Source: Oligoflexia bacterium (GTDB lineage Bacteria; Bdellovibrionota; UBA1018). From it: 57,921 bases of DNA. Position numbers and translations under genes: made by a program. The number at the start of each line of letters is the position of its first letter. Position 1 is the stretch's first letter. Shown here one piece after another: positions 13,639 to 45,111 of this stretch. The notes below the pieces were generated by a model. That model searched no databases. It had not been told where the DNA came from and was given only the letters and a program-made list of their open reading frames with translations. Location of the stretch: assembly GCA_043732485.1 (NCBI GenBank), contig JAYTHP010000212.1, forward strand, positions 1 through 57,921. The letters are read 5' to 3'.

Positions 13639-13775
13639 CCAACAAAATCAAGCAAAGTTCTTGGCAAAGATGAAAGGGCAAAGACCCCACAAGCTTGAGG
13701 CCACACGCTCCTTGCTGCCCTCAACCTGTGACCTTGTGCCAAAAGAGTCCTTTGATTGCGACAATTTCCGCGCTC

Positions 13776-16700: not shown

Positions 16701-16943
16701 AAAGAAGTCCTCGCCCCAGTAAAGCACCATCGGCTGGCTAGCATTCAAAACAATGCCCAAGACAGTCTTCAGGGGGCCTGGCCAACCGGCGCCATCGTGA
16801 GAAGGAAAACAAGGAGAATCAGGCTCGCCCAAGGGGTGCCTCGCCCAATCAATCTCCTGCAACAGGGAGACGACCTTGCCCCCTTTGCTGCAGACGCGCT
16901 TAAAAAATGGAGTGTGAGCTTGCTGCGCTTTCATAATACCCAC
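13776..16943 (-). CDS. multi-PAS sensor histidine kinase, tandem paralogue of 10351-13638
   Basis: The H-box is FLANMSHEIRTPL, and the ATPase boxes are NAIKFT, DSGIGI and GGNGLGLFLSRQLAESLGG. Long blocks are near-identical to the neighbouring kinase (for example NKQVRRDFLGRVVGL.GISRDITE). The start is GTG 16943 or ATG 16934. Confidence 0.85.
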   Translation of the reverse strand: MGIMKAQQAHTPFFKRVCSKGGKVVSLLQEIDWARHPLGEPDSPCFPSHDGAGWPGPLKTVLGIVLNASQPMVLYWGEDFFQFANDAFVGLSLAPARALGQKADERLQQPAADFLAEARQVFRAGQGQTQPISAGAAATADGWQWSAQPVFRHDHARGAEGSPPVVGGVLVMLCAAQRPLQQRVEQGIDAAARGDDPLFPAAALPVSSPLVLPVTLTDTLAQPRSFLLPAYDGDHDCDPSLFRRGRCAQVVVVAEDQSVLKQTEAKLRQADAINALFLENSPVGLAMFDHEMRYLRVSARWLKEAGLKAQDVMGRNHYEVFPFLPERWRESHTRCLAGATEKNDCDAFVQPDGTIKYIQWEVRPWLAHGGGVGGLIIFSEDITARQVGEEKLRLIAELAPQHLWILDETGVATYHNTQLVDFLGLESGTSTGDSWPQHVHPDDRPKLNALWAEATAKHTPMEAECRIRSKDGEYRWFLNRAVLLKNKTTQLSQWIGVSVDISRIKQAEELLRESELRQKLLSETMLQGVVFHDHEGSLLSANPAALAILGRSCENNLATSLRRKRTHPNLREDGSHFSAQDHPTTLALHTGMAQKGVILSVYNPREEAYRLLELDAVPLLRGAEEQVPYGVVSIFSDITERKRIENELKQSSDILEAIMSASTDMIFVKSRTSHIIYANPAMQAVLGKGKENLYGKTDTEFLPGDQGEVILQTDERIMSTGVGEIITEALTVASGETRLYWSNKQVRRDFLGRVVGLIGISRDITEITLTQERLQHSETRLQQLVEHLQATNQRKNTFLANMSHEIRTPLAAIAGFTELLKDAQLLVAERERYVAIVESNCHQLVALVNDTLDLSKIEAGYIQIHNEDCDLQAIVEEVIALLTLKAGQKRLSLRLEWSESAQSALHSDAVRLKQILTNLISNAIKFTPDSGSVVVQVQSRACGEQAFDLEVRVRDSGIGISENDRSKLFQIFSQANSSIKQAFGGNGLGLFLSRQLAESLGGALVLEETAEGKGSIFLLTLFHQKRAKVANTEAESTPESLTSAFASSLDETLPA

Positions 16944-17369: not shown

Positions 17370-18089
17370 ATGAAATACCTTGAATACCGCTGCACCGTGA
17401 CTGGCAAACAGCCCTTAACACCGACGGTGTTTCAGCTGCAGTTTGTCACCGAGCCGGACTTGCAGTTTGTGGGCGGACAGTTTGTCAGTATCGTGATTCC
17501 CGGGGCCTCACCCGAAGGGCGCGACCTGAGACGAGCCTATTCGCTGGCCTCTTCTCCCTCACAAAGGCCCTATGAACTGTGCATCAAGCGGGTCAAAGGA
17601 GGTCCTGGCACAACCTACTTAGATCACTTAGCAATCGGAGCCTGCTTTACGGCGGTGGCTCCTTACGGCGATTTTGTTTTTAAAACCGCGCGCGAACGTC
17701 AGGTTTTTTTCATCGCCACGGGTTCTGGCATTGCTCCTTTTCGCGCGATGATGGGCGGGGCGGAGTACCAGCAGGCCCCTCCGGTTTTGCCGCCCACTTG
17801 CTTACTCGGGGTGAGGAGCGAGGACGAAGTCTTGTATGATTCCTTTTTTCAAGCGCAACCCCAGGCCCGCTGGGTGCCGATGGTCTCGCAACCCACCCAT
17901 CCCACCGCTTGGACGGGTCAAAAAGGCAGGGTCACGGACTATTTGCGAGCTTTGGGGAAAGACTTTCCGTGGGAGCAAGCGGATTTCTATCTGTGTGGTA
18001 ACGGTCAGATGATCAAAGAAGTGAAAGGCATTTTGTTTGATCACCAGGTCTTAAAGACTGCCATTCATCAGGAAATCTACTTTCGCTGA
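17370..18089 (+). CDS. ferredoxin-NADP(+) reductase-family flavoprotein
   Basis: Motifs are RAYSLAS (R-x-Y-S FAD-binding), GGPGTTYL, FIATGSGIAPF (NAD(P)-binding) and YLCGNGQMI. ATG 17370 is preferred over the track's TTG at 17361. Confidence 0.8.
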   Translation: MKYLEYRCTVTGKQPLTPTVFQLQFVTEPDLQFVGGQFVSIVIPGASPEGRDLRRAYSLASSPSQRPYELCIKRVKGGPGTTYLDHLAIGACFTAVAPYGDFVFKTARERQVFFIATGSGIAPFRAMMGGAEYQQAPPVLPPTCLLGVRSEDEVLYDSFFQAQPQARWVPMVSQPTHPTAWTGQKGRVTDYLRALGKDFPWEQADFYLCGNGQMIKEVKGILFDHQVLKTAIHQEIYFR

Positions 18090-18972
18090 AAAAATGCGCC
18101 AGGTGGTCTTGCGTCAATAGCTCTTGCATCAGTTGCGGTTCGCTTTTGAGGGCTTTGGAGTAGAGGAAAAGAAAATCCCTGGTTTTTTGCGGGATGGGGC
18201 CCTGTGTGACGCAAGTGCGCTCTTGCACCAGGTGCAACAGTCTGGCCTCGCGCCTCCAAAAAAAGCGTAACCTCTTTAAAAGATGCTCCATTAAGCTTGC
18301 TGAGGCGCGAGCTGCCGCATTTTCAATCAACTGTAACGCCATCACCCCTAACAGGCGATCCGACTGCCCCTGCCAAAAAGCCACCCACAGAGAGGGCTCT
18401 GAGTGGTGCCATTCGCTAGGGAGATGGCGGACCTCGAACTGGTGTGAAAAGCGTGGCTTCTTTTTTGCCCCCCGCTTAGCTTGGGGAGTAAGATGCCCCA
18501 CGCGCTGGAGCAGAAACTTTAACCCCAAAAAGGCCTCCAGGGTCAAGGCGCGGGAGCGAAAGCAGCCAAAGAAGCGAAAGCCTGGGAACTTTTGCGGTTG
18601 AGTGGTGTAAACCCAGGTCATGCTGTCTTCAGCTTGCTGGTACCCGACGTAGGGATACAGATGAAAAAACCGAGCCACCACGTTCCATTTGGGGCGATGC
18701 GTTTGAATCTCATTAATTTCCAGGATGCGCGCTTCAAGATCGCTTGCCGTCACCTGATAAGTCAGCTGCGAGGCTTCCTTCAGCATGCGACTGACTTTTT
18801 TACTGCGCGGGCTGCGAGCTAGAGAACGATAACTGCGCAGACGCTTTTTCAGATTCTTAGCTTTACCGACATAGAGGATCTGTGCCTTGGCATCACGAAA
18901 GAAATAAATCCCTGGGCACGAGGGCACCTGGCTCAGAAAATCTGAGCCAAACTTGAGATCAAAGGCTTTCAT
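18013..18972 (-). CDS. GIY-YIG nuclease, homologue of the UvrC N-terminal half (Cho-like)
   Basis: The N-terminus reads PGIYFFRDAKAQILYVGKAKNLKKRLRSY...EARILEINEIQTHRPKWN, followed by FFGCFRSRALTLEAFLGLKFLLQ as in UvrC. No UvrC C-terminal endonuclease/HhH region is present. Confidence 0.7.
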   Translation of the reverse strand: MKAFDLKFGSDFLSQVPSCPGIYFFRDAKAQILYVGKAKNLKKRLRSYRSLARSPRSKKVSRMLKEASQLTYQVTASDLEARILEINEIQTHRPKWNVVARFFHLYPYVGYQQAEDSMTWVYTTQPQKFPGFRFFGCFRSRALTLEAFLGLKFLLQRVGHLTPQAKRGAKKKPRFSHQFEVRHLPSEWHHSEPSLWVAFWQGQSDRLLGVMALQLIENAAARASASLMEHLLKRLRFFWRREARLLHLVQERTCVTQGPIPQKTRDFLFLYSKALKSEPQLMQELLTQDHLAHFFSESRFPDEWQSLRPGDQTKCLSLL

Positions 18973-19910: not shown

Positions 19911-20000
19911 TGGCGGAGAGAGAGAGATTCGAACTCTCGAGCGGTTTTACCCGCTGCTCCCTTAGCAAGGGAGTGCCTTCGGCCACTCGGCCATCTCTCC
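19911..20000 (-). tRNA. tRNA-Ser (anticodon GCU), CCA encoded
   Basis: The reverse complement reads GGAGAGA TG GCCGAGTGGCCGAAGGC A CTCCC TTGCTAA GGGAG, then a long variable arm, GAGAG TTCGAAT CTCTC, TCTCTCC, G and CCA. The acceptor, anticodon and T stems all pair. Confidence 0.93.
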
Positions 20001-20236
20001 AAAAGCAACAAAATCTAATATTTTAAAGAGCAAAAACCAGGAGTTAGCAGTTAATTCCCTCAACTTCGGGGGGGGCGTCAGTAAGCTTCAACAGCGACGG
20101 CGAGCAACTCAACCCAGACCCGAGCTAAAAACGGGCAACAAACCCTTCTCTCCAACTCAACCTCTATCGCGCTAGAGGGGATAAGACAACCCTTAACCCA
20201 AGGAAGGCCGGCATTTTTTTGCAAAAACCTCACCTT

Positions 20237-21312
20237 TTACTTCCGTCGTCTTGCCAGCCGATAGACTCTCGCTGTGGATGCACCTTGAGCGTCGATCACC
20301 CGTTGCTTGATCAGCACAACAACGTCACGCACCACCTTGCGACACGGAACATCGGACATCCATGCGACGATCTCTTGCTTTGAAAATTTACTCTTCTTCT
20401 GGGCAATGGATACGATCTTTCGCTGCCTGGCCTCAGGGGGCCTTTGAGCTTCTGCGCGGAGCAGACTTCGCCCTTCTTCTGCCGCTTCTTCCGCAGCCAC
20501 TGCGAAACATTCCGCCAAAAACTCAAGAAGGGGGTGCACAGAAACAAGCCCTCTACTTTGGCGAATGGCCAGGTAATAACGATCCCGGCCGCCCATGATG
20601 ACAGTCTCACTGGAGACAAGCCTTGCAAGGCGCTGACCACTCAAGAGGAGCAACAGCTGTTGCATTAGTCGCACAGTGCGACCCTTGCCACCAACAAAGG
20701 GATGGATGATAACGGCAATAAAATGGAAGGCAAAGGCTCGTGCGGCGGGGGGCATTCATCGATGCGCGCACCCGTCACGGCGCTCACGATACTTACCGGG
20801 TGGCTTCGAAGCCTCCCGCATTGCCTCTCATCAATTAAGTCCTACGGCAAGTCCTGCGGCAAGTCCTAGTTGACCAGCCTCTGTAGATCGCACATTTCGG
20901 CTATTTTGAGCGGAACGCCATCTTTTGTTAATCATTCAGCATAATCTAGGGCTTCGCGGTAGTTTTGCACTTCCTTGATATCCTTTTTGAGTCCTGCGAC
21001 CCTTTTCCCTTGCAAGAGGGCAGTCACTTCACTTTCCCCAAGCCCATTGCCTTCAAGTTGATGTGAGTAGGTGATGGCTCTCACCTTCGCGTTGCGCAAG
21101 AGCTTTAACTCCTGTGGAGCTGCTAAATATTCTTCCAAGAACGGCCTTGCTTTAGCAATCAGCATGAGCGATTTCACCAGGGTAGGCGTATAGCGAACCT
21201 CATGAGGGATCTTAAGACGGGGCTCAAATGAGGATATCTTGAAGGCATACCCTATTGTCCACCAAATGCCCGCCAGCCCGAGCGGGTATTGCTCCCGCTT
21301 GTTGCTGCTCAA
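20237..21312 (-). pseudogene. decayed Fic/DOC-family (AMPylase-type) gene
   Basis: An N-terminal piece (21312-20932, ending ...YREALDYAE*) and a C-terminal piece (20755-20237, with HPFVGGKGRTVR in place of HPFx[D/E]GNGRxxR) are present. The ~175-nt gap holds Fic-like peptide fragments in other frames (DGVPLKIAEMCDLQRLV; GRLRSHPVSIVS) and a 12-bp tandem repeat. Confidence 0.6.
20837..20869. repeat. 12-bp tandem repeat (aagtcctRcggc) x2.75 inside the Fic pseudogene gap
   Basis: Read directly: aagtcctacggc aagtcctgcggc aagtcctag. Confidence 0.85.
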
Positions 21313-21514: not shown

Positions 21515-22169
21515 ACCTAAGTTTTTATAGGTTATAGGCTAAAGCGCCAGAGCAAAAAGCCGCCGCAAGACCTTCTATTTGATATCGCTCATGAGCAAAA
21601 AGGCTATTTCACTGCTCAACAGGCCCTCCTTGCTGGGATTCCCGATAGCGCCCATGCCTATCACGTGCGAGCTGGAAACTGGGTTCGCGAGCAGCGCGGT
21701 ATTGATAGACTCGTGCGTTACCCCTCCACTGAGTTTGAAAACCTCATGGTCTGGTACCTAGGGTCGCGCGACCGCACAGGAACACCTAGAGACGTTTTTT
21801 CCTACGAAACGGCACTCCTCTTTTACGATCTCTCTGACGCCAACCACAGCAAGACGCACCTGACCGTCCCCCCTCACTTCAGACGCGCTCAGCAACCACC
21901 CCGAAGTCCTCGCTTTCCATAAGAAAAAGCTTGACCCGAGTAAAGCTCAGCTCAGATTTGGCTTGAAACTCACCTCTCCCCTGCGCACCCTACAAGACAT
22001 GGTCTCAAAGCCCTCCTCTTCGCTCGCTATCGTGGAGCAGGCGATCAACGGGTCCGTAGAGCGAGGGCTGGTACTTAGCAGGGAAATCCAACAGCCTCCA
22101 GAGCTTGCTCACTTCATGCGAGTTGTTATCCTTGCACGAGGCGCGCACTCACGTCTATCCCCGCAGTGA
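21515..22169 (+). pseudogene. frameshifted AbiEi-type (type IV toxin-antitoxin) antitoxin-like gene, no cognate toxin gene
   Basis: One frame reads FDIAHEQKGYFTAQQALLAGIPDSAHAYHVRAGNWVREQRGIDRLVRYP...HLTVPPHFRR and stops at 21922. The expected continuation (PEVLAFHKKKLDPSKAQLRFGLKLTSPLRTLQDMVS...) lies in another frame. No ATG start is present for the first part. Confidence 0.55.
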
Positions 22170-23072
22170 CCCGGACCGGTGCAGCAGCATCATGTGCGGG
22201 ACGGTGAGGGCAGCAAGCGCCGTAAAAACGACTCGCCAAAGCGGCGCGCCATCGCTCGCTCCTCCAACTTCCTGCAGGCGGCCTTCAACCGCCACGCCTA
22301 AGGCAATCACGACTAGGGTAGGTAACACGCCGCACCAGAGCCACTGCTGCCGCGTCAGGGTCGGCGCCCCTTGCACCGTGCGCACCAAGTGTCTGGGACT
22401 ATGCATCCCACAAAAGTACACACTAAAAGCTAACAGCGGAGGGAGGCACAAAGCCAGTGTGGCGTTAGCAGCCAAGATCGAGCCGTTCAGCCAGCGCTTC
22501 TTGACCAGACACTCAAGCACACCGCATGCCACCCCCCCTAGCCACAGCCCACTGAGGGGTTGTAACACCGCTTGAAAACTGGCCGCATCGCGAGGGCCGA
22601 CCCACCTGGCAAACACTTGGGTTACTTCGGCTGAGTGATTCCAAAAAGGCAGCACCACCAGCGTGCCGCCATAAACCAGCCTGGTGAGTGAGGACGACTG
22701 AGCACGCCTGAGATCCCCTGCAAAATGCCAGACAGAGAGCGCTAGAAAGAGCGCAAGCCCTGGGCTTGGCGCAAGCTGCAACCCTAAGAGCACCACACCT
22801 GTCGTTGCCAGGTAGCAAGCGACAAACAGCGCCCAGGCGCCAGCTTGCTTCAGCTGCCACGTCTGCTGAGCGTAAACCGTATCGAGTGACCCGTGTGGGA
22901 CGCCCAGTAACAAAAGCCCCAGCACCAGTATCTTGAAGAATTGCGGCCTGAGCAACTGCGGGAGCGCAAGGCCCCAGAGCTCTGGCGGCAGCCATCCCAC
23001 CGCGGCGTAGAGGACGAAGCAGGCTGCAAGCCCCGCTAAAAAAATGAGGGCTTGGCGGTCCTCGGCGCTCAC
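22155..23072 (-). CDS. blh: Brp/Blh-family beta-carotene 15,15'-dioxygenase (retinal synthase)
   Basis: This is a polytopic membrane protein with the Blh His-containing blocks GVPHGSLD, SVWHFAGD and GMHSPRHL. Its GTG start overlaps the crtY stop (GTGA at 23069-23072). Confidence 0.8.
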   Translation of the reverse strand: MSAEDRQALIFLAGLAACFVLYAAVGWLPPELWGLALPQLLRPQFFKILVLGLLLLGVPHGSLDTVYAQQTWQLKQAGAWALFVACYLATTGVVLLGLQLAPSPGLALFLALSVWHFAGDLRRAQSSSLTRLVYGGTLVVLPFWNHSAEVTQVFARWVGPRDAASFQAVLQPLSGLWLGGVACGVLECLVKKRWLNGSILAANATLALCLPPLLAFSVYFCGMHSPRHLVRTVQGAPTLTRQQWLWCGVLPTLVVIALGVAVEGRLQEVGGASDGAPLWRVVFTALAALTVPHMMLLHRSGSLRG

Positions 23073-24532
23073 CCTTTTTTCACCCGACCACCCCTACCCA
23101 CAACAACACTATCCCCGCGAGGCGATCGTAAGACCCGCGGCAGCTCAGCCAAGAACACCCCCGCTGGCATGGCGGCAATGATTTTTAGGCAATCCAGCCA
23201 GGTGGGGTGACCTGAGAGGAAACGAATCACTCGAGGGGTGGCGACGTTTTTAAAGAAGCGAAAAAATAACTCAGGCGCAATCTCAGGGTGCGAGCGCAAG
23301 ACGGCCAGAAAGACCTGATCCATCATCCTGATGCGCTTGCCGTCAGGAGCGTGAGGGATCGGGGGTAAGCCACGCTTGAGTTCACCAGCGCAGCTGCGAG
23401 CCCACACTTGGATCCGCTGAAAAGCATACCCCGTGCTGGGCCTGGCGGCTCCGGCCATCAGTCCCACCTGCAAGTAACTGGCATCTTGAACGGTCTGAGC
23501 AGACAGGCTTCCCATCGGTAGCACTCCTGCCTCCTCGCGCAGCACTGTGGTGACACCTGTTTCCCCTGCTCTTAGCCTGACTGCTTGCCTGGCAGCAGCC
23601 GCAAGCTCGCAAGCCGGGATGGGCGTGGGGGCAAAAACCGTGACTTCGACTAAAGCCTGGTGAGCGGAGCTCGGAATGACGTACGTGAAGAGAATGGGGC
23701 ACGGAGTAGGGAGGGGACGGGGCAAAGAGGCAGACGACGCGGCAACCACTCCCTCACGCTGACCCGGCTGATCGCCTTGCGCTTGGCTGTGGTGGTAAGG
23801 CGGTGGTACTGCTGCCGCTGCCGCTGCTGCTGCTGCTGCTGCTAGCTGCACCTGATCCCCTTCATTAAAGCTCATGAGATCAACACAATCGGCATCAAAA
23901 ATAGGCTCCTGGCTATGAACTTCTAAGCCATAAAACGACTGCCACAATCCTGCACTCGCCTCTATAAACGGAAGGTTTGCTGCCCCGCGCGTATCAACGA
24001 CATAGCGGGCCCGGTAGGTCCGCCCTTCGTTGTGGGTATTCGAAGGGGTGCGAGTGGTGGTTACTTCCCAGCTCCCCGAAGCTGTTTTCGAGGGCGCCTG
24101 CTCCACGTTGCTGCCGAGTTCTAACCTTACCTGGTGGTTACTTTGGGAAAAAACGGCTTGCGCATAGTCATAAAAGCGATCGCCTGGCAAAATGGCATAA
24201 GGGGTGCTGCTGCCGCACTCAAACTCGTGTGTCTGCCCCGCCTGACGCACCCGCATGCGGCTAAAACGGTGACTGACGAGCGCCTTGAAGGGATCTTTAG
24301 TAGCCGCCGCTGGAGAAGTCACTGGGTTTGGTTCCCAAAACGCCCAGGTGCGGTCATGCGAGTAGCTGAGGCGTTGTTCCAGGATCAAGACTTTCAGCCT
24401 CGCGCCTGCTTGCAACACAGCAAGCCCCAGGCTAAGCCCTGCGCAGCCCCCTCCCAGGATCAATAAGTCGACCTCCTCCGCTATTTGGCCTGACAGCGCG
24501 CTCCTGCTAACGCTCACCGGCGCCACCACCAT
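23069..24532 (-). CDS. crtY: lycopene beta-cyclase (CrtY type) with a low-complexity insert
   Basis: An FAD-binding DLLILGGGCAGLSLG lies near the N-terminus, and CrtY-like blocks are present (FTYVIPSSAHQALVEVTVF). ATG 24532 is preferred over the track start at 24679, which would overlap crtB by 166 nt. Confidence 0.85.
   Translation of the reverse strand: MVVAPVSVSRSALSGQIAEEVDLLILGGGCAGLSLGLAVLQAGARLKVLILEQRLSYSHDRTWAFWEPNPVTSPAAATKDPFKALVSHRFSRMRVRQAGQTHEFECGSSTPYAILPGDRFYDYAQAVFSQSNHQVRLELGSNVEQAPSKTASGSWEVTTTRTPSNTHNEGRTYRARYVVDTRGAANLPFIEASAGLWQSFYGLEVHSQEPIFDADCVDLMSFNEGDQVQLAAAAAAAAAAAVPPPYHHSQAQGDQPGQREGVVAASSASLPRPLPTPCPILFTYVIPSSAHQALVEVTVFAPTPIPACELAAAARQAVRLRAGETGVTTVLREEAGVLPMGSLSAQTVQDASYLQVGLMAGAARPSTGYAFQRIQVWARSCAGELKRGLPPIPHAPDGKRIRMMDQVFLAVLRSHPEIAPELFFRFFKNVATPRVIRFLSGHPTWLDCLKIIAAMPAGVFLAELPRVLRSPRGDSVVVGRGGRVKKG
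23811..23843. repeat. GCY trinucleotide run (11 units) encoding poly-Ala in crtY
   Basis: Read directly: gct gcc gct gcc gct gct gct gct gct gct gct. It is translated on the minus strand as a run of about 11 Ala. Confidence 0.9.
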
Positions 24533-25374
24533 CGCGGGGTGCAGACAAACCGGAGCACAGCGCGCGCCGTAAGCCGGGTTTTTTGCCAGCCGCTTAAAGA
24601 CACCCGCTTGCTCCAGTAATCGTAATCGCGGGCCTGAAGCTGAACTCCAATTTCCCGGTACAACGAAAGCGCCACCCATACGCCTAAGCGGGCACGGCGC
24701 GGTAGGTAGATTAAGCCGCGCTGCCCGCTGTCGTAATAGCGCTCAGCTAGTGCCAGCAAATGGCTAAGAGTCTTTTTTAAAACGACTTGCTGGGAAGCCT
24801 GGAGCTGAAAAGGAGCTTGTAACACGGCAAGCGAGAAGTCGCTTGCCTGTACCTGGCCAGGCAAGTCTTGCAGTAGGGCGGCCGGGAGATAGCGCCGCCC
24901 GAGTGCCGCGTCCTCTTTGACATCTCTGCAGATATTGGTCAACTGCATGGCCATCCCCAAGTCGCCTGCATGCTGGGCTGCCTGCCCTTTTTGCTCCACT
25001 TCCAACACGTCACACATCATGATCCCTACCGTGCCTGCCACCTGATAACAGTACTTGAGCAACTCACTTTCTGTTTCAAGCAGCAGCGGATCTAAGTCGC
25101 GCCCCACCCCAAGGATGAGCTCCTGCAAAGCAGCCGCGTTGATCTGCGCTGAGTGAAAAAACTCGCTCTGCAAGGTCTCTGCTTGCAACGCTTGCAGTTG
25201 CTTGCGGGTGACGGCAACTGACACCAGCCGCTCATCGACCAAATCATCAATACTACGGCAAATGGCGTAAAGCCAGGTGGCCCGCCTTGCCGCCTCGCGA
25301 CTGAGGAGCTGCTTGGCAAAAGCGAAGCTTTTCCCTTTGGCTTGCAATAAGGCCTCAGCCTGCTGGAAGTTCAA
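24514..25374 (-). CDS. crtB: phytoene synthase
   Basis: The motifs YAICRSIDDLVDE and NICRDVKEDAALGRRYLP (Asp-rich squalene/phytoene synthase motifs) are present. The TTG start overlaps the crtI stop (TTGA at 25371-25374). Confidence 0.9.
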   Translation of the reverse strand: MNFQQAEALLQAKGKSFAFAKQLLSREAARRATWLYAICRSIDDLVDERLVSVAVTRKQLQALQAETLQSEFFHSAQINAAALQELILGVGRDLDPLLLETESELLKYCYQVAGTVGIMMCDVLEVEQKGQAAQHAGDLGMAMQLTNICRDVKEDAALGRRYLPAALLQDLPGQVQASDFSLAVLQAPFQLQASQQVVLKKTLSHLLALAERYYDSGQRGLIYLPRRARLGVWVALSLYREIGVQLQARDYDYWSKRVSLSGWQKTRLTARAVLRFVCTPRWWWRR

Positions 25375-26921
25375 GAGGCCGCAACCGCGGTGGCGGCAGG
25401 AATCAGCTTATCAATCAAGCGCGCCGAGCAGAGCACGCCTGGTAGCCCCGCACCTGGATGAGTGCCTGCGCCCACCAGGTAGAGATTCTTAATCCCCTCA
25501 GCGCGGTTATGAAAACGAAACCACGCCGATTGCCGAAAGATCGGCGCAATCGAAAAACCGGCACCATGCTCGCTCAGATAATCTTTTTCAAAGTCGTCAG
25601 GCGTCATGAAAAAATCGCTAGTGATAGTTTCTTCTAAGCCAGGTAACATCGATTTTGCCAGGGCGCTTACGATACGATTGCGAAGCTTCGGGCCTTCCAC
25701 ACTCCAATCGAGCTGAGCTTGCTGATTGGGCACCGGACATAGCACGTAAAAGCTATCACAGCCCGCAGGCGCAAAGCTCGGATCAGTTGCCGTCGGCCGA
25801 TGCAAGTACAAGGAAAAGTCTTCAGCCAGGATCTGGCGATCAAAGATGTCTTTTAACAGCTCCCGGTAACGCGCCCCCATCCAGATCGTGTGATGCGCCA
25901 CCTCGTCATAAGTTTTCCGAGTGCCAAAGTACAAGACAAACAAGCCCATCGAGAACTTCGCGGTCTTAAGCTTCAGCCGGGTGACTTGCGATTGCTGCGC
26001 TTTGGCGATCATCGATCGGTAGAGATGGGCAGGATCGGCGTTTGAGACAATGAGATCAAAAGGTAAGCGCTCGCCCGTGCTTAAGCTCACGCCTTTTGCC
26101 ACCCCACGCTCCACTTCAATTTGAGTGATTGTGGTGTTCAAGCGAACGGTAATCCCTTGTCTGGCCATCAATCCCCCCAAGGCATCAATGATCGCTCCTG
26201 TGCCGCCCATGGCAAAATGCACCCCGTAGGCCCGCTCGAGAAAATGAATCAAAGCGTAGATGCTCGAAGTGTCAAAGGGATTGCCTCCCACCAGCAGCGG
26301 CTGGATGGAAAAAGCCTGCTGTAACTTGGGATGTGACAGGTAACTGGAGACCATCCCCCAAACGGTCTTGTAGTTTTTTAGCCTGATCAGACGCGGCACC
26401 TGGGCTAGCATCATCCGCAGCCGGTGAAACGGCGCGTCAGCTAACTCCAGGTAGCCGATATCAAAAATACGCTTCGAGTGCGCAAGCAACTGCTGATAGC
26501 CCTCGACATCGCGCGGCTCAATTTTTCGAATTTCTGCCAACGTGTCTTCCAAGGTGCCACCATAGTCAAAGGTCGAGCCGTCCTGGTAGTAAAAGCGGTA
26601 CCAGACCTTAAGCGGCACTAGTTTCAGATGATGCTCCATCGTCTCGCCAAACAGCGCAAAAAGCTCCTCAAATAAAAAAGGCGCCGTAATCACCGTGGGA
26701 CCTGCGTCGTGGCGAAAACCATCTTTTTCAAAGACCTGGCCGCGTCCACCCAGCCTCGGACAGCGATCCATCACGGTGACTTGATAGCCCTTGGCGCGCA
26801 TCCGCAAGGCTGCGGCGATCCCACCAAAGCCTGCTCCAATCACCAGCGCGGTAGGGGGCTGGGGAACAGCAGTGACGGGAGTGGAGTGATGCAAGGGTGT
26901 GGAGGCATGGGTAGCGGTCAT
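25371..26921 (-). CDS. crtI: phytoene desaturase
   Basis: The N-terminal dinucleotide fold is LVIGAGFGGIAAALRM..GYQVTVMD, and the C-terminal block is LYLVGAGTHPGAGLPGV. The length of 516 aa is typical of CrtI. Confidence 0.92.
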   Translation of the reverse strand: MTATHASTPLHHSTPVTAVPQPPTALVIGAGFGGIAAALRMRAKGYQVTVMDRCPRLGGRGQVFEKDGFRHDAGPTVITAPFLFEELFALFGETMEHHLKLVPLKVWYRFYYQDGSTFDYGGTLEDTLAEIRKIEPRDVEGYQQLLAHSKRIFDIGYLELADAPFHRLRMMLAQVPRLIRLKNYKTVWGMVSSYLSHPKLQQAFSIQPLLVGGNPFDTSSIYALIHFLERAYGVHFAMGGTGAIIDALGGLMARQGITVRLNTTITQIEVERGVAKGVSLSTGERLPFDLIVSNADPAHLYRSMIAKAQQSQVTRLKLKTAKFSMGLFVLYFGTRKTYDEVAHHTIWMGARYRELLKDIFDRQILAEDFSLYLHRPTATDPSFAPAGCDSFYVLCPVPNQQAQLDWSVEGPKLRNRIVSALAKSMLPGLEETITSDFFMTPDDFEKDYLSEHGAGFSIAPIFRQSAWFRFHNRAEGIKNLYLVGAGTHPGAGLPGVLCSARLIDKLIPAATAVAAS

Positions 26922-26986
26922 AAGTCACCTTTTTTTTTCAAGGGTTCAAAGCGTGATAGAATCAGGGAAAGTCGCCAAGAGTCATA

Positions 26987-27012
26987 TAGAATGAGGCAGT
27001 AGAATGAGGCAG
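26987..27012. repeat. 13-bp perfect tandem direct repeat (tagaatgaggcag x2) upstream of crtI
   Basis: Read directly at 26987-26999 and 27000-27012. A degenerate third copy, tagaatcaggga, lies near 26957. It sits in the 246-nt crtE-crtI spacer. Confidence 0.85.
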
Positions 27013-27167
27013 TTCGTACGTCAGAGATCACAGCGGAAAAGCATCTCGAACCCTCCTCTGGGTTATAAGGCTTTTCACGGGCTTTGCATGAACCTTTCAT
27101 GAACTTCTTGGGCACTTCCGATCACCAACCCCTCCCCTGAAGCGAGATGGGGGTGGCGCGTGTGTGA

Positions 27168-28226
27168 TCAAAAAATCGACATCTCTCTTGCTAGGCTTTG
27201 CAAATACTGCCCCGAGTGGCCGGGTAAGTCACGCGCCATCGCTTCTGCGGAAGCAAAATAGCTGCGCGCCAGCGCCTTCACCTGCTCTAGCGCCTGCTGC
27301 TCGCTGCCCTGTCGCAAGATCCATTCATAGAGATTCAAACTGGCAGGCTTACCCTCTTGTGCCTGATCCTGCTTAAGGTCCACTAAATCATCACGAATCT
27401 GGTAGCCAACCGCGAAATCCTCGGCCGCACGCCGGGCCCAGGTTAAAGCCTGAAAATTTTCTGAGGCAATCAAGGCCAACTCTAACGGTAAACTGAGCAA
27501 CGCGCCTGATTTGGCCTTCACCACCTCGGCATAACTCTCTACCCCTGCAAGACCCCGACTCGCCGACGCTGTCGTTCCGGCTGCCCACCCGCCGCAAGCA
27601 TTTAGCATTTCTGCGCCCCGCAGGTCATCACACTGTCCGTCAATGGCGGCTGACACGCAGCGATGCATCGCCCGCAGCAGCGCAGGCAACAGCCGCGGCT
27701 GACTGAAGTGCGATAGGGCCCCGTAAGCACTGGAAATCATGTAATCTCCCGCACAAATTGCAACTGCCGGTGAAAACTTCACCCACACCGCTTCACACCC
27801 CCTCCGCTCGGTTGCTTGATCCTGTAAGTCATCGTGAACTAACGAGGCATTGTGCAGCAGCTCTACCACGGCACAAAGCAGCAGCGCGTCCTCACGCGCG
27901 ACGCCTAGGCTCAGGCAAGCGCTCCAACCAATGCGCGCCCGCGTGCGACTCCCACCGGAGCTGACCTGGTACAAGGCTGCCTGGGCCGCTTGGCTAAGGC
28001 CTGACCGATGCTGCAAATAAGGCAAGACCTTCTGCGGGTGGGTCGGATCTAGGGCTGCGCTCGTCAAAGTCCTAAGACCCAGGCCGGCTCCCGTGAGCAA
28101 CTCGGTCATCTTGCGCTCAACCGCCCCCATCCCCTCCTCTTGGGCAGCTGCAAGTGCTCCCCCGGCAGCCGCCATCAACGGGTTACTTACCAGGTTACTT
28201 AGCGGATCACTTGGCATGTCACACAC
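27168..28226 (-). CDS. crtE: geranylgeranyl-diphosphate (polyprenyl) synthase
   Basis: The first Asp-rich motif is LVHDDLQD and the second is QIRDDLVD. Its position between the rhodopsin and crtI matches canonical photosystem clusters. Confidence 0.85.
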   Translation of the reverse strand: MCDMPSDPLSNLVSNPLMAAAGGALAAAQEEGMGAVERKMTELLTGAGLGLRTLTSAALDPTHPQKVLPYLQHRSGLSQAAQAALYQVSSGGSRTRARIGWSACLSLGVAREDALLLCAVVELLHNASLVHDDLQDQATERRGCEAVWVKFSPAVAICAGDYMISSAYGALSHFSQPRLLPALLRAMHRCVSAAIDGQCDDLRGAEMLNACGGWAAGTTASASRGLAGVESYAEVVKAKSGALLSLPLELALIASENFQALTWARRAAEDFAVGYQIRDDLVDLKQDQAQEGKPASLNLYEWILRQGSEQQALEQVKALARSYFASAEAMARDLPGHSGQYLQSLAREMSIF

Positions 28227-28355
28227 CTCTTGGCTGAGAAGTCTTAAAGTTTAAGGCAAAAGCCCGATCAGCCCCGTGAGGACCAACCGGGCTCAATGTT
28301 TTTACTCTTTTTTTTGTTCTGGTTTAGCTCTGGTTCTCAGTTCTGATCATCGTTT

Positions 28356-28385
28356 GCACTCCCTATGGCTGCACTCCTTATGGCA
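28356..28385. repeat. 15-bp tandem direct repeat (gcactccYtatggcW x2) between the rhodopsin and crtE
   Basis: Read directly: gcactccctatggct at 28356-28370 and gcactccttatggca at 28371-28385. Confidence 0.85.
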
Positions 28386-28418
28386 AACTTCTGCAACAAC
28401 CCAAAGACCCGAGAAAAA

Positions 28419-29183
28419 TCAGTGCGCGCCCTTAGGCAAGGACCCATCGGCTTCCGACTTCGCTCTGGCAATCCAGTAGATCATCACACCGTAGAAGGCT
28501 TTGGCCAACACGTCAGAAATGGCGTAGCCGACTTGAACTGCGACAATCGAGGACTCCGAGGCGATCCCGAAGGTAGGCAAGAAAAAGGTGATAGGGTAAA
28601 ACGACCAAGTAACGAGCAACAACAGTCTGATGTTGGCAGTTAAATCTTTCACTGCCTCAGGCTGGTGCTTCATGGCCGAACCCAGCTTGCCCCATAAAAC
28701 TGACAAGATGTACAAGAAAGGGATCATGCTCAGCGTGCCCCAAGCCGCTCGGGTCATCATATCGCCTGCAATTTCTCCAGGATAACCTAAAGCGATCATC
28801 AAGAAGGCGGCCAAACCGAGCCTAGCAAACAACCCCTTTTGATCAGCTTTCGAAAACGCCAGCACTGAAATCAATTCGATTAACAGCAACGGCACCGTCA
28901 GCAACCAGTCCACATATCGATAAGCATCGTTAAAAGGAACGCCTGATGGCTTAAATACTCCAGCCGTCATGGTATAAGCATGCGACCAGCTATCGAAAAT
29001 TCTTAAGTAATGGTATCCAGCAATCGCCACCACCACCGCGGAAATCAGCAGTGCTGGGCGATATTTTTCACCCACCTGGCTTCGTGCCCCGAGAAAAAAG
29101 ACAAAAGCCCCTAGCATGGCAGCAATGGTGAACGACAAAGCGTTGTAAACAGCAAAGTACTGGCCTGTAGTTAATTCAAGCAT
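28419..29183 (-). CDS. microbial rhodopsin, xanthorhodopsin/Gloeobacter-rhodopsin-like outward proton pump (DTE motif)
   Basis: This is a seven-helix protein of 254 aa. Key blocks are AGYHYLRIF (H58), RYVDWLLTVPLLLIE (R89, D92, T96, L100, E103), GYPGEI, AAWGTLSMIPFLYILSVLW (G149) and VQVGYAISDVLAK (D224, Schiff-base K228). Confidence 0.93.
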   Translation of the reverse strand: MLELTTGQYFAVYNALSFTIAAMLGAFVFFLGARSQVGEKYRPALLISAVVVAIAGYHYLRIFDSWSHAYTMTAGVFKPSGVPFNDAYRYVDWLLTVPLLLIELISVLAFSKADQKGLFARLGLAAFLMIALGYPGEIAGDMMTRAAWGTLSMIPFLYILSVLWGKLGSAMKHQPEAVKDLTANIRLLLLVTWSFYPITFFLPTFGIASESSIVAVQVGYAISDVLAKAFYGVMIYWIARAKSEADGSLPKGAH

Positions 29184-29192: not shown

Positions 29193-29216
29193 CTCCTTTG
29201 AGATGACCTCATTTTA
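29193..29216 (-). promoter_or_regulatory. rhodopsin ribosome-binding site and candidate -10 element
   Basis: On the minus strand, AAAGGAG (29199-29193) lies 9 nt before ATG 29183. TAAAAT (29216-29211) lies upstream. The -35 element is weak or unclear. Confidence 0.35.
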
Positions 29217-34394: not shown

Positions 34395-36659
34395 TCAGGT
34401 GCTCCTTACTCTTTCTTCTACCGCCACTCCGGCTCCGCCTTGTAACGCTTTAAGGGTGGCAAAAAAATGGGGATAAGAAACCGCCACACACTCCGCGCCC
34501 TCCACCTCGCACCCCAACGCCGCCGCCTCTGCACCACCCAAACTCCGCCTTCCTGTCGTGAGCAGACCCAGGAGTGTTAGCACCATCACCATGCGATGAT
34601 CACTAAAACTAGACACCTTCCCCCAAGCTTGGGGGTTTTGTGGTCCTTCGATGCTAAAACCATCCGGGCTGACCTCCATGCCCATCCCTAAACACTCAAA
34701 ACTTACTCTTAGCGCCTCGATACGGTCACACTCCTTCTTGCGCAGCTCTTGCGCCCCGTACACCCGGGTTACTCCCACCGCTTGACTCGCTAAAACGGCA
34801 ATCAGCGGCAATTCGTCAATCAAGCGCGGGATTTCCTGCGCGGGAATGTCGGTTGCGACCAACTGACCTGAGTAACTCACCTCAAGCGTGCCTTCAGGCT
34901 CAAGCCCCGACTGCACGCTCAAGGCGTCTGGTTGACTCACACGGGCCTCGACCTTAGCGCCCATCCGTGCCAGTACTGCAAGCAAGCCGGTACGGGAGGG
35001 ATTTAACCCCACGTGCTCAAGGATGACCCGAGAGCCCGGAATCACGCTTGCAGCCACTAGCCACACTGCGGCAGAGGAGAAATCGCCGGGGATCGCAAGT
35101 GTGCGCGGCTGCAGCTTCTGACCGCCTGGCAGCCGTAAGCTTTTACTGGGATCAATAAAAATTTGCGCTCCAAAGTAACGCAGCAGCCGCTCCGTGTGAT
35201 CGCGACTGTCAATAAGCCCCCGCAGGATCGTAGTTCCCTGCGCCTGCAGCCCTGCCAGCAAGAGCGCACTTTTGACCTGGGCGCTTGCCACGGGCAACGC
35301 ATACTCCATTCCCTGGAGCGCCAAAGTACCGGTCATCCATAGCGGCAAAGTTTCCCTGCGCGGGGGAGCAAGCGGGCTTAGCCATTGACCTGCTCTGCTT
35401 TCTACTGGCTCTCCTAGCTCTTGGCCTTGAAATCTTACACCCATCAAACCCAAAGGCTCAGTTACCCGGCGCATCGGTCGCACCCGTAGCGAGGCATCCC
35501 CGGTAATCTCGACCGTCAGCGGCTGCTTGGCCAATAAGCCCGGCAACAGGCGCGCCGTGGTGCCAGAATTTTGACAATCTAAACAAATCCGACCCTCGCC
35601 TTGCTGCCCGAGCGCCCCCCCTTCCACCTGCAAGACCTGCTCGCCTGCTTCCTGAACTCTTACCCCCAAGGCACGCAAGCACGTAAGGGTTGCCTGCACG
35701 TCCTGACTGGTTGAAAGCCCGTGCAAAGTGCTGGTGCCTTGGGCTAGCGCTCCTAAGATCAGCGCGCGGTGGGAGACCGACTTGTCGCCAGGCACTCGGA
35801 TCCTTCCTTGCAGCGGAAGCGGTTGACGGCCTAGCAAGCGGGCGAGTGGCCGGACGGCTGAGCGCACCACCGACGACAACGACGACTCGTCTTCAGATTG
35901 CGAGGTGGAGGGTGCTGTGGGGGGGGGTTGATTCCAATACTCAAGTTGCCACTGATATTCTTTGGGCTCTTTGGGCTCTTTGGGCAAGCGCGCGAGTTTG
36001 CGAACGAGCTTACGCACTAATTTGCCATGATGACCGGTTTGCATCTTCAATGATTGCAGCTCCGCCAGGCCCACACCAGCACCAACAACGACCGCACTCG
36101 CCTGCCGTTCAGGTTCTGGCATCTCTTGCGTCAGCCTCTTGCCGTCTCGTTGTGGGAGGAGCGCAAGAAAATAGCGCAAAATTCCTTGGCTAGAAACCAC
36201 CACCACTTTTTGCGCTGTACCGAGCTCTTGTACGAGCTGGAGCACTTGCTCTTGAATCCGTTGCGATGAGCCGGCCCAACCGGCTGCCTTCGGCCACACC
36301 CCTTGCTGCTCCCACTGCTGTAATTCCAGCACCCCAAACTTCTCAACGATCTGCTCGCGCGTCAAACCCGACCACAGGCCATAATCAATTTCATTTAAAC
36401 GCTCGTCAACTTTGAGCTTGACGCCCCCACAGTGCTCGTGAATGATCTCAGCCGTACGCCGCGTTCGTCTCAGGGAGGCTGACAGAATTAAATCTGGTTG
36501 AACCTCGGATTGAACCGACGACGCACAAAAAAACTGCCCCAACCGCTGCGCCTGTGCTTCGCCCTCAGCCGTAAGGGGTAGATCCTGCTGGGACCCAATC
36601 CAAACCGGCGTACTCCCCTGAGGGAAGGTGTTACCGTGGCGGCACAACCACAAGATCAT
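34395..36659 (-). CDS. aroA: fusion protein: histidine-phosphatase-superfamily domain + EPSP synthase
   Basis: The N-terminal ~200 aa read LWLCRHGNT, SASLRRTRRTAE, NEIDYG and VVVSSQG. A repeat linker follows (KLVRKLVRKLARLPKEPKEPKE). A full EPSP synthase comes next (VPGDKSVSHRALILGALAQG...). Confidence 0.85.
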   Translation of the reverse strand: MILWLCRHGNTFPQGSTPVWIGSQQDLPLTAEGEAQAQRLGQFFCASSVQSEVQPDLILSASLRRTRRTAEIIHEHCGGVKLKVDERLNEIDYGLWSGLTREQIVEKFGVLELQQWEQQGVWPKAAGWAGSSQRIQEQVLQLVQELGTAQKVVVVSSQGILRYFLALLPQRDGKRLTQEMPEPERQASAVVVGAGVGLAELQSLKMQTGHHGKLVRKLVRKLARLPKEPKEPKEYQWQLEYWNQPPPTAPSTSQSEDESSLSSVVRSAVRPLARLLGRQPLPLQGRIRVPGDKSVSHRALILGALAQGTSTLHGLSTSQDVQATLTCLRALGVRVQEAGEQVLQVEGGALGQQGEGRICLDCQNSGTTARLLPGLLAKQPLTVEITGDASLRVRPMRRVTEPLGLMGVRFQGQELGEPVESRAGQWLSPLAPPRRETLPLWMTGTLALQGMEYALPVASAQVKSALLLAGLQAQGTTILRGLIDSRDHTERLLRYFGAQIFIDPSKSLRLPGGQKLQPRTLAIPGDFSSAAVWLVAASVIPGSRVILEHVGLNPSRTGLLAVLARMGAKVEARVSQPDALSVQSGLEPEGTLEVSYSGQLVATDIPAQEIPRLIDELPLIAVLASQAVGVTRVYGAQELRKKECDRIEALRVSFECLGMGMEVSPDGFSIEGPQNPQAWGKVSSFSDHRMVMVLTLLGLLTTGRRSLGGAEAAALGCEVEGAECVAVSYPHFFATLKALQGGAGVAVEERVRST
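35960..35986. repeat. 9-bp in-frame tandem repeat x3 (ctttgggcW) encoding (PKE)3 in the aroA fusion linker
   Basis: Read directly: ctttgggct ctttgggct ctttgggca. Confidence 0.9.
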
Positions 36660-39543: not shown

Positions 39544-39646
39544 CTCCCTCTTAACCCCCCTTTTTTTTCAGCAAACAGTCTCCGAAAAACGCCACCAGGA
39601 TTAGCCATTGACGCCACCCCGCACGCTGGGCTATAAAATTGAGCCA

Positions 39647-41620
39647 ATGGAGCTGAAAAAAAATCATTTTGACGTCATCGTGATTGGAGGTGGGCATGCC
39701 GGCTGCGAAGCCGCCCATGCTGCCGCCCGCATGGGCTGTGAGACCGCACTCATCACCCTGGACGCCAAACGCATAGGCGCCATGTCGTGTAATCCTGCCA
39801 TTGGTGGTTTAGCCAAGGGGCAGCTAGTAAAAGAAGTTGACGCCTTAGGGGGGTTAATGGGGAAAGTGGCTGATCGCTCAGCCATCCAGTACCGAAGACT
39901 CAATAGCAGCAAAGGCCCTGCCGTGCGCTCCTCCCGCACGCAATGTGATCGTAGCCTTTATGCAGCCGCCATGCAGACGCAGCTTTCTCTTCAACCCCGG
40001 CTGCAAATCCTCGAGTGCGAGGTGGATCGGCTTTGGCTACACTCGGGGCTTCACTCGGCGCCGTCGCCACAATCAAAAATCCAGGGTGTGATCCTCGTTG
40101 AGGGCACCCGACTGCAGGCGAGCTGCGTCATCATCACTTCGGGGACCTTTTTGCAAGGGATGATGTTTACCGGCTCCCAGCAAACCGCAGGCGGCAGGTA
40201 CGGCGATCGTTCCGTCCTGGGTCTGAGTCGCTCACTGGCAGCCTTAGGCTTTAGCATGGGTCGCTTAAAAACCGGCACCCCACCACGTTTAGACCGCGAC
40301 TCGATTGATTACAGCCGTCTGGAGGAGCAACCTGGGGATGCCCAGCCGCTGGCTTTCTCTTTTTTCCAGAAACTCAACCCTTTTCCTTACCTCCCCCAAG
40401 TCAGCTGCCACCTCACTTATACCAACTTACAGACCCACGAACTGATTGCAGCCAACCTCCATCAGTCGCCCATTTACTCAGGCCTGATTCAAGGCAAGGG
40501 ACCTCGTTACTGTCCTTCCATCGAAGATAAGGTCAAGCGCTTTCCGGAAAAAGAGCGCCATCAGATTTTCTTAGAACCTGAGGGCCTCACCACCCCACTC
40601 GTTTATGTCAACGGGATTTCCACCAGCCTACCCGAGGACGTGCAAGATCAGTTCGTGCACTCGATTGTCGGTTTAGAGCAGGCCCGCTTCATTCGCTATG
40701 GTTACGCCGTCGAGTACGATTGCATTGATGCCCGACAACTCAAAGCCACTTTTGAATCAAAAGACGTCAGGGGGCTGTTTTTTGCAGGGCAAATCAATGG
40801 CACCTCAGGCTATGAAGAAGCCGCAGGGCAGGGTATTTTAGCCGGGATCAACGCCGCCTTGCTGCTGCAAGAGCGTGACCCCCTGGTGCTGTCACGCGCG
40901 GATGGCTACTTAGGGGTGTTGGCCGATGACTTAGTGCTCAAAGGTACCGATGAACCCTACCGCATGTTCACCTCGCGTGCCGAGCATCGCCTTTTACTGC
41001 GAGAAGACAACGCAACCCTCAGGCTCAGTGAAATCGGCTGGCAACTCGGCCTGCTGAGCGCTGAGGATTACGCCCACTTTAAAGTTAAGAAAAATGAGCT
41101 TGCAACACTCACCACCCAGCTTGCAAGTTTTTACCTCTATCCCAGAGCGGAAGCCGTCGTGGAGTTTCTGCAAAAAAGAGCCCTGCCGAGCTTACAAGAC
41201 CGAGTCTCAGGAGCACACTTTTTACGGCGCCCTGAGATCCGTTGGGCCGACCTTTGCGAACTGGGCTTTCCAGGCCAGGACGCTGACCCGGAAGTCAGCG
41301 AGCAACTGGAAGTGCAAATCAAGTATGCAGGCTACATTGAGCGCGACTTGCAGCTCGTAGAAGCGGTAAAAAAACACGAGCAGATTCGCATTCCGTTGGA
41401 TTTTGACTTTGCGCAAGTGGCAGGGCTGAGCCATGAGATCAGACAGCGCCTACTCCTCACCCGCCCAGAGACACTCGGGCAAGCCAGTCGCATGCAAGGC
41501 GTGACGCCTGCTGCTGCAGCCAATTTAATGATTTTCTTCAAAATGCATTCCTTTAACAGGACGAAAACCGCCCCCCCCCTCTCACCACCGCCATCTTCCT
41601 ACGCCTGCACCGAATCGTGA
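39647..41620 (+). CDS. mnmG: tRNA uridine-5-carboxymethylaminomethyl modification enzyme MnmG (GidA)
   Basis: The sequence reads [23 protein letters not shown]...[19 protein letters not shown]...[11 protein letters not shown]...[19 protein letters not shown] 39647 is preferred over the track's TTG at 39608. Confidence 0.95.
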
Positions 41621-42378
41621 CACAGCAAGACTCCCCCACCACCATCACCATCACGAACGAGACTGTGGCGCTGCAAGCCTTGCTTGCAACCTTAACCCCT
41701 CCCCTTCCCGCACTCGTGCAAGCACAAATCATCCGCTTTTTTGACTTTCTAGGCGCCGAAAATCAGCTACAAAACCTGACTCGGCTGACAAGCGCTGAGG
41801 AGTTTTTTTACGGCCACCTAGCCGATGTGCTAGAGCTCACGCGCGGTGACTGGCTTGGCGCCAACGCCTTAGACCTAGGCTCGGGGTGTGGCGTGCCGGG
41901 TTTACTTGCGGCCCTGGTCTCCGAGGAGTCGAGGTGGGTTTTAGTAGAATCAGAACGCCGCAAAGCGGACTACCTCAGCCGCGCAGTCCTCCACCTCGGC
42001 TTAGCACAAGTCCAGGTCTACTCCGGAAGAGTGGAGCAGTACTGGGCTGCACCTTGGGCGGCTACTCCCCACTTCACTCCCCAGCCGTTTGCAATGACGG
42101 TGGTGGCAAGAGCGGTGGGCTCGACGGAACGGATCGCCCGCTGGCTCGGGTTAGGATCCGCCAAACCCAAGCGCCCCGCTTCCCCTCAGGGAGAGGGCTG
42201 CGAAAGTTCCACGTGGAACAATTTGGTACTCCTCAAGGGACCAGCTTGGCCTAAGGAATGGCAAGAGCTTCAAAAAGGCCCGCTGCGGCATCGGCTCAAG
42301 CTCGTGCGCGAGTGGCCCTATCAGGTGGGGCCTGAGCAAAAAAACCGCTTCCTAGTCCAGCTGCAACCCAACCGCTAG
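41617..42378 (+). CDS. rsmG: 16S rRNA m7G527 methyltransferase RsmG (GidB)
   Basis: The call rests on its position after mnmG (GTGA overlap), the SAM-binding [12 protein letters not shown], and [11 protein letters not shown]. It contains a C-terminal insert relative to typical ~210-aa RsmG proteins. Confidence 0.8.
42205..42220. promoter_or_regulatory. parS-like site (15/16 match to the palindromic parS) inside rsmG
   Basis: AGTTCCACGTGGAACA read directly, compared with consensus tGTTNCACGTGAAACa. Confidence 0.6.
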
Positions 42379-42422
42379 TGTACGGGCAATGATGTTCCAC
42401 GTGGAACATCATTGCCCGTACA
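42379..42422. promoter_or_regulatory. 44-bp perfect palindrome containing a perfectly palindromic parS (TGTTCCACGTGGAACA at 42393-42408)
   Basis: Base-by-base pairing was verified from t42379/a42422 in to c42400/g42401. It begins immediately after the rsmG stop codon and lies ~225 nt upstream of parA. Confidence 0.85.
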
Positions 42423-42646
42423 GGAAAAAAATCACCGCCTGCGCAGTTTGCTATTGCCTCCTCCCGCTGGGACAGCTAGCGTGAAAGAACGAGCTTTTGC
42501 GCCTACGCAGGCAGCCCGACCTTCTGGCAACCCTTCTTAGTCTTGCGCCACAAGAGAAAGAGAAAAAAAGTACCCCATGATTTGCTTACCCCCCCGCCCC
42601 CTGCCCCTTGCGCCTTACTCACCCCTTCACCTCCAGGGAGCGCGCC

Positions 42647-43552: not shown

Positions 43553-43645
43553 TGCAAGTGCAGTGTCATCCGCTGCTTGCATTAGGGGTCAGCCGTCGTC
43601 GTTTGTAGTTTTTCGTAAAAGTCTTGGCAAAAAGGAGATCCGCTC

Positions 43646-45084: not shown

Positions 45085-45111
45085 TTTTTATTTGACCCCC
45101 AAGCTTCAAGT

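Follow-up and report, generated by a model that had tools for sequence, protein, structure and literature searches.

A xanthorhodopsin-clade opsin on a Bdellovibrionota contig keeps the fenestration glycine, with replacements across the predicted carotenoid-binding surface

We analyzed the opsin gene of contig JAYTHP010000212.1 (57,921 nt); the window below means this whole 58-kb contig. The gene (28419-29183, minus strand) encodes a 254-amino-acid protein of the xanthorhodopsin (XR) clade, subgroup I type, with the DTE proton-pump motif. It retains Gly149, the fenestration glycine of carotenoid-binding members of this clade. No antenna genes are linked to the opsin, and its lineage-specific changes cluster on the carotenoid surface; on these two grounds a retinal-only pump is the most likely interpretation. 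We give a probability of roughly 55% to the protein being a retinal-only pump, or a weak carotenoid binder, in which Gly149 would be a relic.

The opsin matched Pfam Bac_rhodopsin (E = 6e-35). Against the Protein Data Bank (PDB), phmmer returned as the best match Kin4B8 (PDB 7YTB/8I2Z; GenBank OP056329), at about 58% identity (E = 1.3e-82). This was followed by psXR (3.2e-82), Gloeobacter rhodopsin (GR; 6NWD; 1.6e-80, 53% identity), Salinibacter ruber XR (3DDL; 7.4e-77, 55% identity), Thermus rhodopsin (6e-72) and green proteorhodopsin (GPR; 5e-20). Bit scores were 262-280 to XR, GR, psXR and Kin4B8 versus 75 to GPR. In a neighbor-joining tree (no bootstrap) the opsin was nested in the XR clade, with the protein P0002 as its sister, a metagenome-assembled genome (MAG) labeled Oligoflexia next and GPR outside. 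Kin4B8 was placed in a neighboring subclade and is not the sister group. Scores and tree position together rule out the classical proteorhodopsin clade. They confirm an earlier note, made from the letters of the window, that had called the protein Gloeobacter-rhodopsin-like rather than proteorhodopsin-like. The opsin is a member of the XR/Gloeobacter-rhodopsin clade.

The full proton-pump residue set (D92, T96, E103, H58, D224, and K228) is present, and all pump residues are shared with XR and GR. The helix C codons from D92 to E103 (28875-28910, minus strand) hold the proton acceptor D92, T96, the green-tuning L100, and the proton donor E103. The codon of K228, the retinal Schiff-base lysine, lies at 28500-28502 (minus strand). 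Kin4B8 likewise has the DTE motif, Leu at the spectral-tuning position, and the fenestration glycine (G153). At 53-58% identity to proven pumps, the protein is, we infer, a green-absorbing, outward proton-pumping rhodopsin. The codon of G149 is at 28737-28739 (minus strand). By residue counting in pairwise alignments G149 stands opposite Kin4B8 G153, GR G178, and XR G156, and in a multiple alignment it stands opposite Trp138 of bacteriorhodopsin. The alignments thus uphold the homology to XR Gly156, GR Gly178, and bacteriorhodopsin Trp138 put forward in the earlier note. That note had also placed H58, R89, D92, T96, L100, E103, W148, G149, D224, and K228 correctly.

We profiled the site in the 120 best homologues among 5.8 billion proteins. 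The fenestration glycine occurs in 119 of these 120 sequences; it is the clade default, and its retention carries little information. Opsins of the XR clade that bear Gly156 are the majority in fresh water. Glycine at the fenestration position was reported in ~55% of environmental XRs and in 43% of proteorhodopsins (Chazan et al., bioRxiv 10.1101/2022.08.24.505090). With frequencies of 119/120 among homologues and ~55% among environmental XRs, the glycine does not bear the weight implied for it earlier as a specially retained feature.

We then compared eleven site positions (XR numbering: G156, T160, N191, L194, L197, A198, G201, I205, Y207, M208, and M211). Published work assigns T160, L194, L197, A198, G201, and I205 to the helix-F polyene slot (PMC3646047), lists G156, T160, N191, L197, I205, Y207, and M211 as residues common to XR and GR (PMC3587595), and describes Y204, A205, S208, and Y209 as pocket residues in the Kin4B8/psXR system (PMC12308411, PMC12779958). 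The homologue consensus over the eleven positions is G, T/S, N, L, L, A, G, I, Y, M, M; the window opsin reads G, M, N, L, L, V, S, I, F, F, T. It keeps the glycine, N191, L194/L197, and I205 of XR and GR and differs at six of the eleven positions (T160M, A198V, G201S, Y207F, M208F, and M211T). Four of these changes (T160M, A198V, G201S, and M208F) bring in larger side chains. In opsin numbering the replacements are M153 (XR T160), V191 (A198), S194 (G201), F200 (Y207), F201 (M208), and T204 (M211). They lie within codons 147-205 (28569-28745, minus strand), the stretch of helices E and F predicted to form the carotenoid-binding surface. The earlier note was right about the homology of the glycine, whereas the other residues of the site, which it had not checked, are changed at more than half of the positions.

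These residues are rare in the clade. M153, V191, S194, F201, and T204 each occur in none of 119 homologues, and F200 occurs in five of 119, with Tyr at this position in the other 114. Five of the ten residues unique to the window opsin fall in the eleven site positions (hypergeometric p = 1.2e-5). Where carotenoid-binding rhodopsins have their conserved Tyr (XR Y207, Kin4B8 Y204), the opsin has F200, and three of the six positions of the helix-F slot are changed (M153, V191, and S194). Subgroup II XRs that have the glycine but not the helix-F slot bind salinixanthin poorly (PMC3646047). P0002, the nearest opsin homologue (79% identity), deviates from the consensus at none of the eleven sites, and divergence elsewhere is equal in the two proteins (62/243 vs 63/243). 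Identity between them is 87-97% at the termini and 60-67% across residues 141-200.

Three of the six replacements are also seen in non-fenestrated XRs. In a set of 80 genome-derived relatives, neither Met at XR position 160 nor Ser at position 201 was found outside loci L049 and L073, the two with Trp or Phe at position 156, which blocks the fenestration; L073 also has Val at position 198, as in the window opsin. Gene conversion from an opsin of this type could have introduced M153, V191, and S194, but we rejected it, as the window opsin was nearer to P0002 than to L073 over each 30-residue stretch. This sliding-window identity gave no sign of recombination with the L049/L073 lineage, so the shared states are parallel changes.

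Genes for an antenna pigment were absent from the window by several searches. When about 50 non-overlapping open reading frames (ORFs) of the window were scanned with Pfam, none matched FA_hydroxylase (CrtZ/CrtG type), FA_desaturase (CrtW/CrtR type), Caroten_synth (CruF), or any further family that modifies carotenoids. The same scans found no second CrtI-like protein, and crtI encodes the only Amino_oxidase protein. A six-frame tblastn search of the window with crtZ, crtW, cruF, family-2 glycosyltransferase (GT2), and acyltransferase sequences of relatives, all Pfam-verified, gave nothing at E <= 1e-4. The possibility that the crtI-like gene encodes a CrtO-type ketolase was ruled out by 574 bits to TIGR02734 versus 70 bits to the CrtO model (cut-off 1000). 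Pfam scans, CrtO score, and tblastn thus bear out the earlier statement that the window encodes no ketolase or hydroxylase. A Rieske [2Fe-2S] oxygenase of 514 amino acids (2077-3621, minus strand), 25 kb from the opsin, was considered as a hidden carotenoid hydroxylase. It gave only generic matches (Rieske, DdmC, KshA, and SxtT), and we found no evidence for a link to carotenoids.

What accompanies the opsin is a retinal operon. The opsin gene leads a co-directional minus-strand run, opsin-crtE-crtI-crtB-crtY-blh (22155-29183), with queF upstream. A GGAG ribosome-binding site, read directly from the sequence, lies at 29193-29196 (minus strand), upstream of the opsin ATG at 29183 and separated from it by 9 nt. 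The five following genes, all on the minus strand, encode a CrtE-like polyprenyl (geranylgeranyl diphosphate) synthase (27168-28226, with the true start probably at the ATG at 28216), the phytoene desaturase CrtI (25371-26921), the phytoene synthase CrtB (24514-25374, assigned with Pfam), the lycopene cyclase CrtY (23069-24679), and the retinal-making beta-carotene 15,15'-dioxygenase Blh (22155-23072; TIGR03753, 146 bits). As listed, the crtY ORF shares 166 nt with crtB, which suggests that its true start lies further downstream; the crtY and blh genes are separate and overlap by 4 nt. All five proteins scored above the Pfam curated cut-offs, and among them only CrtI (TIGR02734) and Blh (TIGR03753) passed NCBIfam cut-offs. 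The retinal operon is complete and is a classical opsin-plus-retinal-pathway cassette. The six genes are probably co-transcribed, and their products would make beta-carotene and then cleave it to the retinal chromophore. The gene content equals that of the opsin, crtEIBY, and blh cassette of proteorhodopsins and subgroup II XRs (PMC3646047), although the opsin here is of the subgroup I type and not a proteorhodopsin. In S. ruber, crtO is associated with the XR gene (PMC3646047), whereas no ketolase gene lies near the window opsin.

The neighborhoods of related opsins look different. In eleven related loci, ten from genomes (L001-L005, L008, L009, L013, L014, and L020) and one metagenomic (L083, which encodes P0005), a blh-GT2-acyltransferase-cruF set lies within ~6 kb of the opsin. 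The opsins of these loci are 66-75% identical to that of the window, come from the same phylum, and share the pump residues and the glycine. Besides Blh, each cluster encodes a glycosyltransferase of family 2, an acyltransferase, and a CruF-type protein (PF04240, Caroten_synth), with crtB, crtI, and crtE nearby (cluster coordinates, for example, L001:4847-9792 and L005:10855-16188). An FA_desaturase-type ketolase gene, crtW, is present in ten of the eleven loci, with none found in L004, and L001 has an FA_hydroxylase gene, crtZ, besides crtW. In L005 crtY and blh form a single fused ORF of ~670 codons (L005:10855-12867), with a lycopene cyclase domain at residues 7-294 and a Blh dioxygenase domain at residues 409-656. 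The same fusion occurs in L004, L008, L009, L013, L014, and L020.

The proposed steps of salinixanthin synthesis are those of a ketolase, a 1',2'-hydratase, a glycosyltransferase, and an acyltransferase (PMC5822342). The gene set of the relatives matches this pathway and so predicts a monocyclic 4-keto carotenoid acyl glycoside made beside the XR gene. The native antenna pigment of the relatives is predicted to be a salinixanthin-like ketocarotenoid acyl glycoside. No description of a linkage between XR genes and such a cluster turned up in a full-text literature search.

In the cluster-bearing relatives the carotenoid site has the consensus state (T/S, Y, M, M), whereas in the window it is derived; their opsins are flanked by (crtY-)blh, GT2, acyltransferase, and cruF, whereas the window has the plain opsin-crtEIBY-blh operon. 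The window CrtI and CrtB are 43-45% and 31-35% identical, respectively, to those of these relatives. P0002 is encoded on a 2.7-kb contig with opsin, crtE (58% identity), and crtI (75%) in the order seen in the window, which points to a plain operon common to a small sub-lineage. The 5.8-billion-protein collection held no closer relative on a longer contig.

The opsin-crtI-crtB-crtY-blh layout is also shared with L049 and L073, the non-fenestrated XR-clade loci. Their CrtI proteins are 54-55% identical to that of the window, the highest values among the genome loci, and their opsins are only ~54-57% identical. They have Trp or Phe at position 156, whereas the window opsin has Gly. In L049 (opsin at 53-790) and L073 (10001-10753) the opsin is followed by crtI-crtB(-crtY-blh). 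Both loci come from MAGs labeled Chlamydiales; a rhodopsin photosystem in bins labeled Chlamydiae is unexpected, and a binning error is also possible. A 2.2-kb Chloroflexota contig (L022) carries two opsin copies in inverted orientation (266-994, plus strand, and 1225-1953, minus strand) and is possibly a palindromic assembly artefact.

In the retinal-only reading, Gly149 would be an inherited clade-wide state, retained while the rest of the antenna apparatus was lost in this lineage. The ketocarotenoid acyl-glycoside genes that stand beside the opsins of relatives would have gone from the contig, and the helix E/F surface that holds the carotenoid would have acquired T160M, A198V, G201S, Y207F, M208F, and M211T. 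Such a loss of the antenna in the lineage is suggested by the residues and the gene order together. A more specific version is that the opsin may be a natural intermediate in antenna loss. The glycine would have been kept, and replacements would have closed the polyene slot and the ring pocket, after a plain retinal operon had replaced the linked ketocarotenoid-glycoside cluster. We propose this sequence of events tentatively, at somewhat less than even odds. The earlier note had allowed for a pigment made elsewhere, scavenged, or absent; the evidence leans to the last of these and is not proof of it.

Several points weigh against loss of the antenna. The absence of antenna genes covers the 58-kb contig of one genome, and such genes could lie elsewhere. 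Closure of the site by M153, F201, and S194 is read from sequence only, and the list of site positions was compiled after part of the data had been seen, with M208 added from the psXR paper. P0002 shares the opsin-crtE-crtI layout yet keeps the consensus site, so the absence of adjacent antenna genes alone is no predictor of site loss. The polar Thr204 resembles Ser208 of Kin4B8 and the Thr of KR1 and EinA29G6, and is as compatible with a new ligand as with a loss. Finally, psXR binds lutein with a hydrophobic pocket floor, which shows that single-residue rules are loose.

A change of ligand is the main alternative, although we consider it less likely. The site would be remodeled rather than lost, and the pump would bind a 3-hydroxy xanthophyll antenna (such as zeaxanthin or lutein) through Thr204, much as Kin4B8 binds its xanthophyll. 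The host would make the pigment with a crtZ encoded outside this contig, or acquire it from its prey or surroundings. The source of Kin4B8 is an uncultured bacterium of freshwater Bdellovibrionota, and the shared phylum favors this alternative. Lutein and zeaxanthin bind to Kin4B8 with energy transfer of 40-55%, salinixanthin binds without transfer, and beta-carotene does not bind; exchange of its G153 for Phe abolishes binding (bioRxiv 10.1101/2022.08.24.505090). The earlier note had framed the antenna as ketocarotenoid or hydroxylated and had left out this closest characterized relative, with its preference for 3-hydroxy xanthophylls over beta-carotene. The window opsin has the glycine required, and N184 matches Kin4B8 N188. 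Its Thr204 places a hydroxyl on the pocket floor at the position of Kin4B8 Ser208, a residue essential for zeaxanthin since S208A abolishes binding, and the xanthophyll-binding proteorhodopsins KR1 and EinA29G6 have Thr at this position (PMC12308411). The relatives with ketocarotenoid clusters all have Met there, so that the change from Met to Thr looks like a specificity switch. The operon would also supply beta-carotene, the substrate of CrtZ.

However, the contig has no crtZ, and other residues of the pocket speak against a xanthophyll. Kin4B8 has Y204, A205, Y209, T157, and G198 where the opsin has F200, F201, F205, M153, and S194. Kin4B8 Y204, here F200, is reported to be conserved in all known carotenoid-binding rhodopsins (PMC12308411). 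F205 equals the Kin4B8 mutant Y209F, which still binds but in which energy transfer falls from ~40% to ~18% (PMC12308411). The Leu of psXR that corresponds to Kin4B8 A205 is enough to push and constrain the ring of lutein (PMC12779958), and the Phe201 of the window opsin is bulkier. S194, V191, and M153 would fill the polyene slot and match the residues of non-fenestrated opsins.

Continued use of a salinixanthin-like 4-keto carotenoid acyl glycoside, with the crtW-cruF-GT2-acyltransferase genes moved elsewhere in the genome, is improbable. Eleven close relatives keep such genes beside the opsin, the window is one contig only, and P0002 shows that this operon layout can coexist with an unaltered consensus site, all of which would fit a relocation. 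However, Met211 and Tyr207, common to the validated ketocarotenoid binders XR and GR (PMC3587595), are both replaced, and half of the helix-F slot differs. A sensory or otherwise non-pumping, not energy-conserving opsin is very unlikely. Weak and indirect support comes from a SpoIIE-type phosphatase and two large histidine kinases with PAS domains 12-20 kb away, and from the proposal of a sensor role for the XR of one Sphingomonas strain (PMC7762795). Against it, the DTE motif, H58, R89, D224, and K228 are conserved, the operon partners are retinal synthesis genes rather than a transducer or kinase, and identity to proven pumps is 53-58%.

The window MnmG and the opsin both bear on the host. 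Each named MnmG homologue came from Bdellovibrionota, Bdellovibrionia, or Oligoflexia, and identities did not exceed 67%. Among species-representative genomes, the opsins nearest to that of the window (64-75% identity) belong to MAGs labeled Oligoflexia, Bacteriovoracaceae, Bdellovibrionales, Pseudobdellovibrionaceae, and Bdellovibrio. Together these matches assign the contig to a divergent member of the Bdellovibrionota. The host is a freshwater-type bacterium of this phylum, to which Kin4B8 also belongs.

Taken by itself, the opsin is an ordinary pump of the XR clade whose retinal operon is canonical, from a phylum that already has a well-characterized pump. What gives it wider meaning is the use of its glycine in surveys: metagenome counts of fenestrated rhodopsins rest on this single residue and feed estimates of antenna light capture in lakes and oceans. 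If this is a glycine-containing XR with a degraded site, the glycine is necessary but not sufficient, and glycine-based censuses overcount and are to be read as upper bounds. The opsin and P0002, with its intact site, would then form a natural pair for mapping antenna residues beyond Gly156. The common occurrence of freshwater Bdellovibrionota XR genes in a cluster predicted to make a salinixanthin-like pigment is a lead on the native antenna of these relatives.

Other parts of the window are described here briefly. An ORF of 1050 codons (51486-54638, plus strand) had no Pfam or PDB match, and one of 410 codons (5632-6864, minus strand) had no Pfam or NCBIfam match. A 754-codon ORF (34395-36659, minus strand) fuses a His_Phos_1 domain to EPSP (5-enolpyruvylshikimate-3-phosphate) synthase (AroA) within a run aroC-aroB-aroA-kdsB. 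On the plus strand, 39608-51248 holds mnmG-rsmG-parA-parB-bactofilin and then the ATP synthase genes for subunits b', b, delta, alpha, gamma, beta, and epsilon, with no a or c subunit genes in this run; the arrangement resembles that of a region near the replication origin in which the F0 operon is split.

Two tandem PAS-rich histidine kinases, each of more than 1000 amino acids (10351-13638 and 13776-16943), adjoin a HAMP-SpoIIE phosphatase (7636-9759) and an ORF with a weak STAS domain (7077-7562). The stretch 7077-16943 looks like a partner-switching signaling module. Shortly past the downstream end of the opsin operon, a tRNA-Ser(GCT) gene (19911-20000, minus strand) adjoins two Fic/DOC gene fragments, a C-terminal part (20237-20755) and a Fic_N part (20932-21312), which look like one disrupted gene. 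An ORF with a GIY-YIG nuclease domain (18013-18972) lies on the other side of this region, and 19911-21312 may be a junction left by rearrangement or integration.

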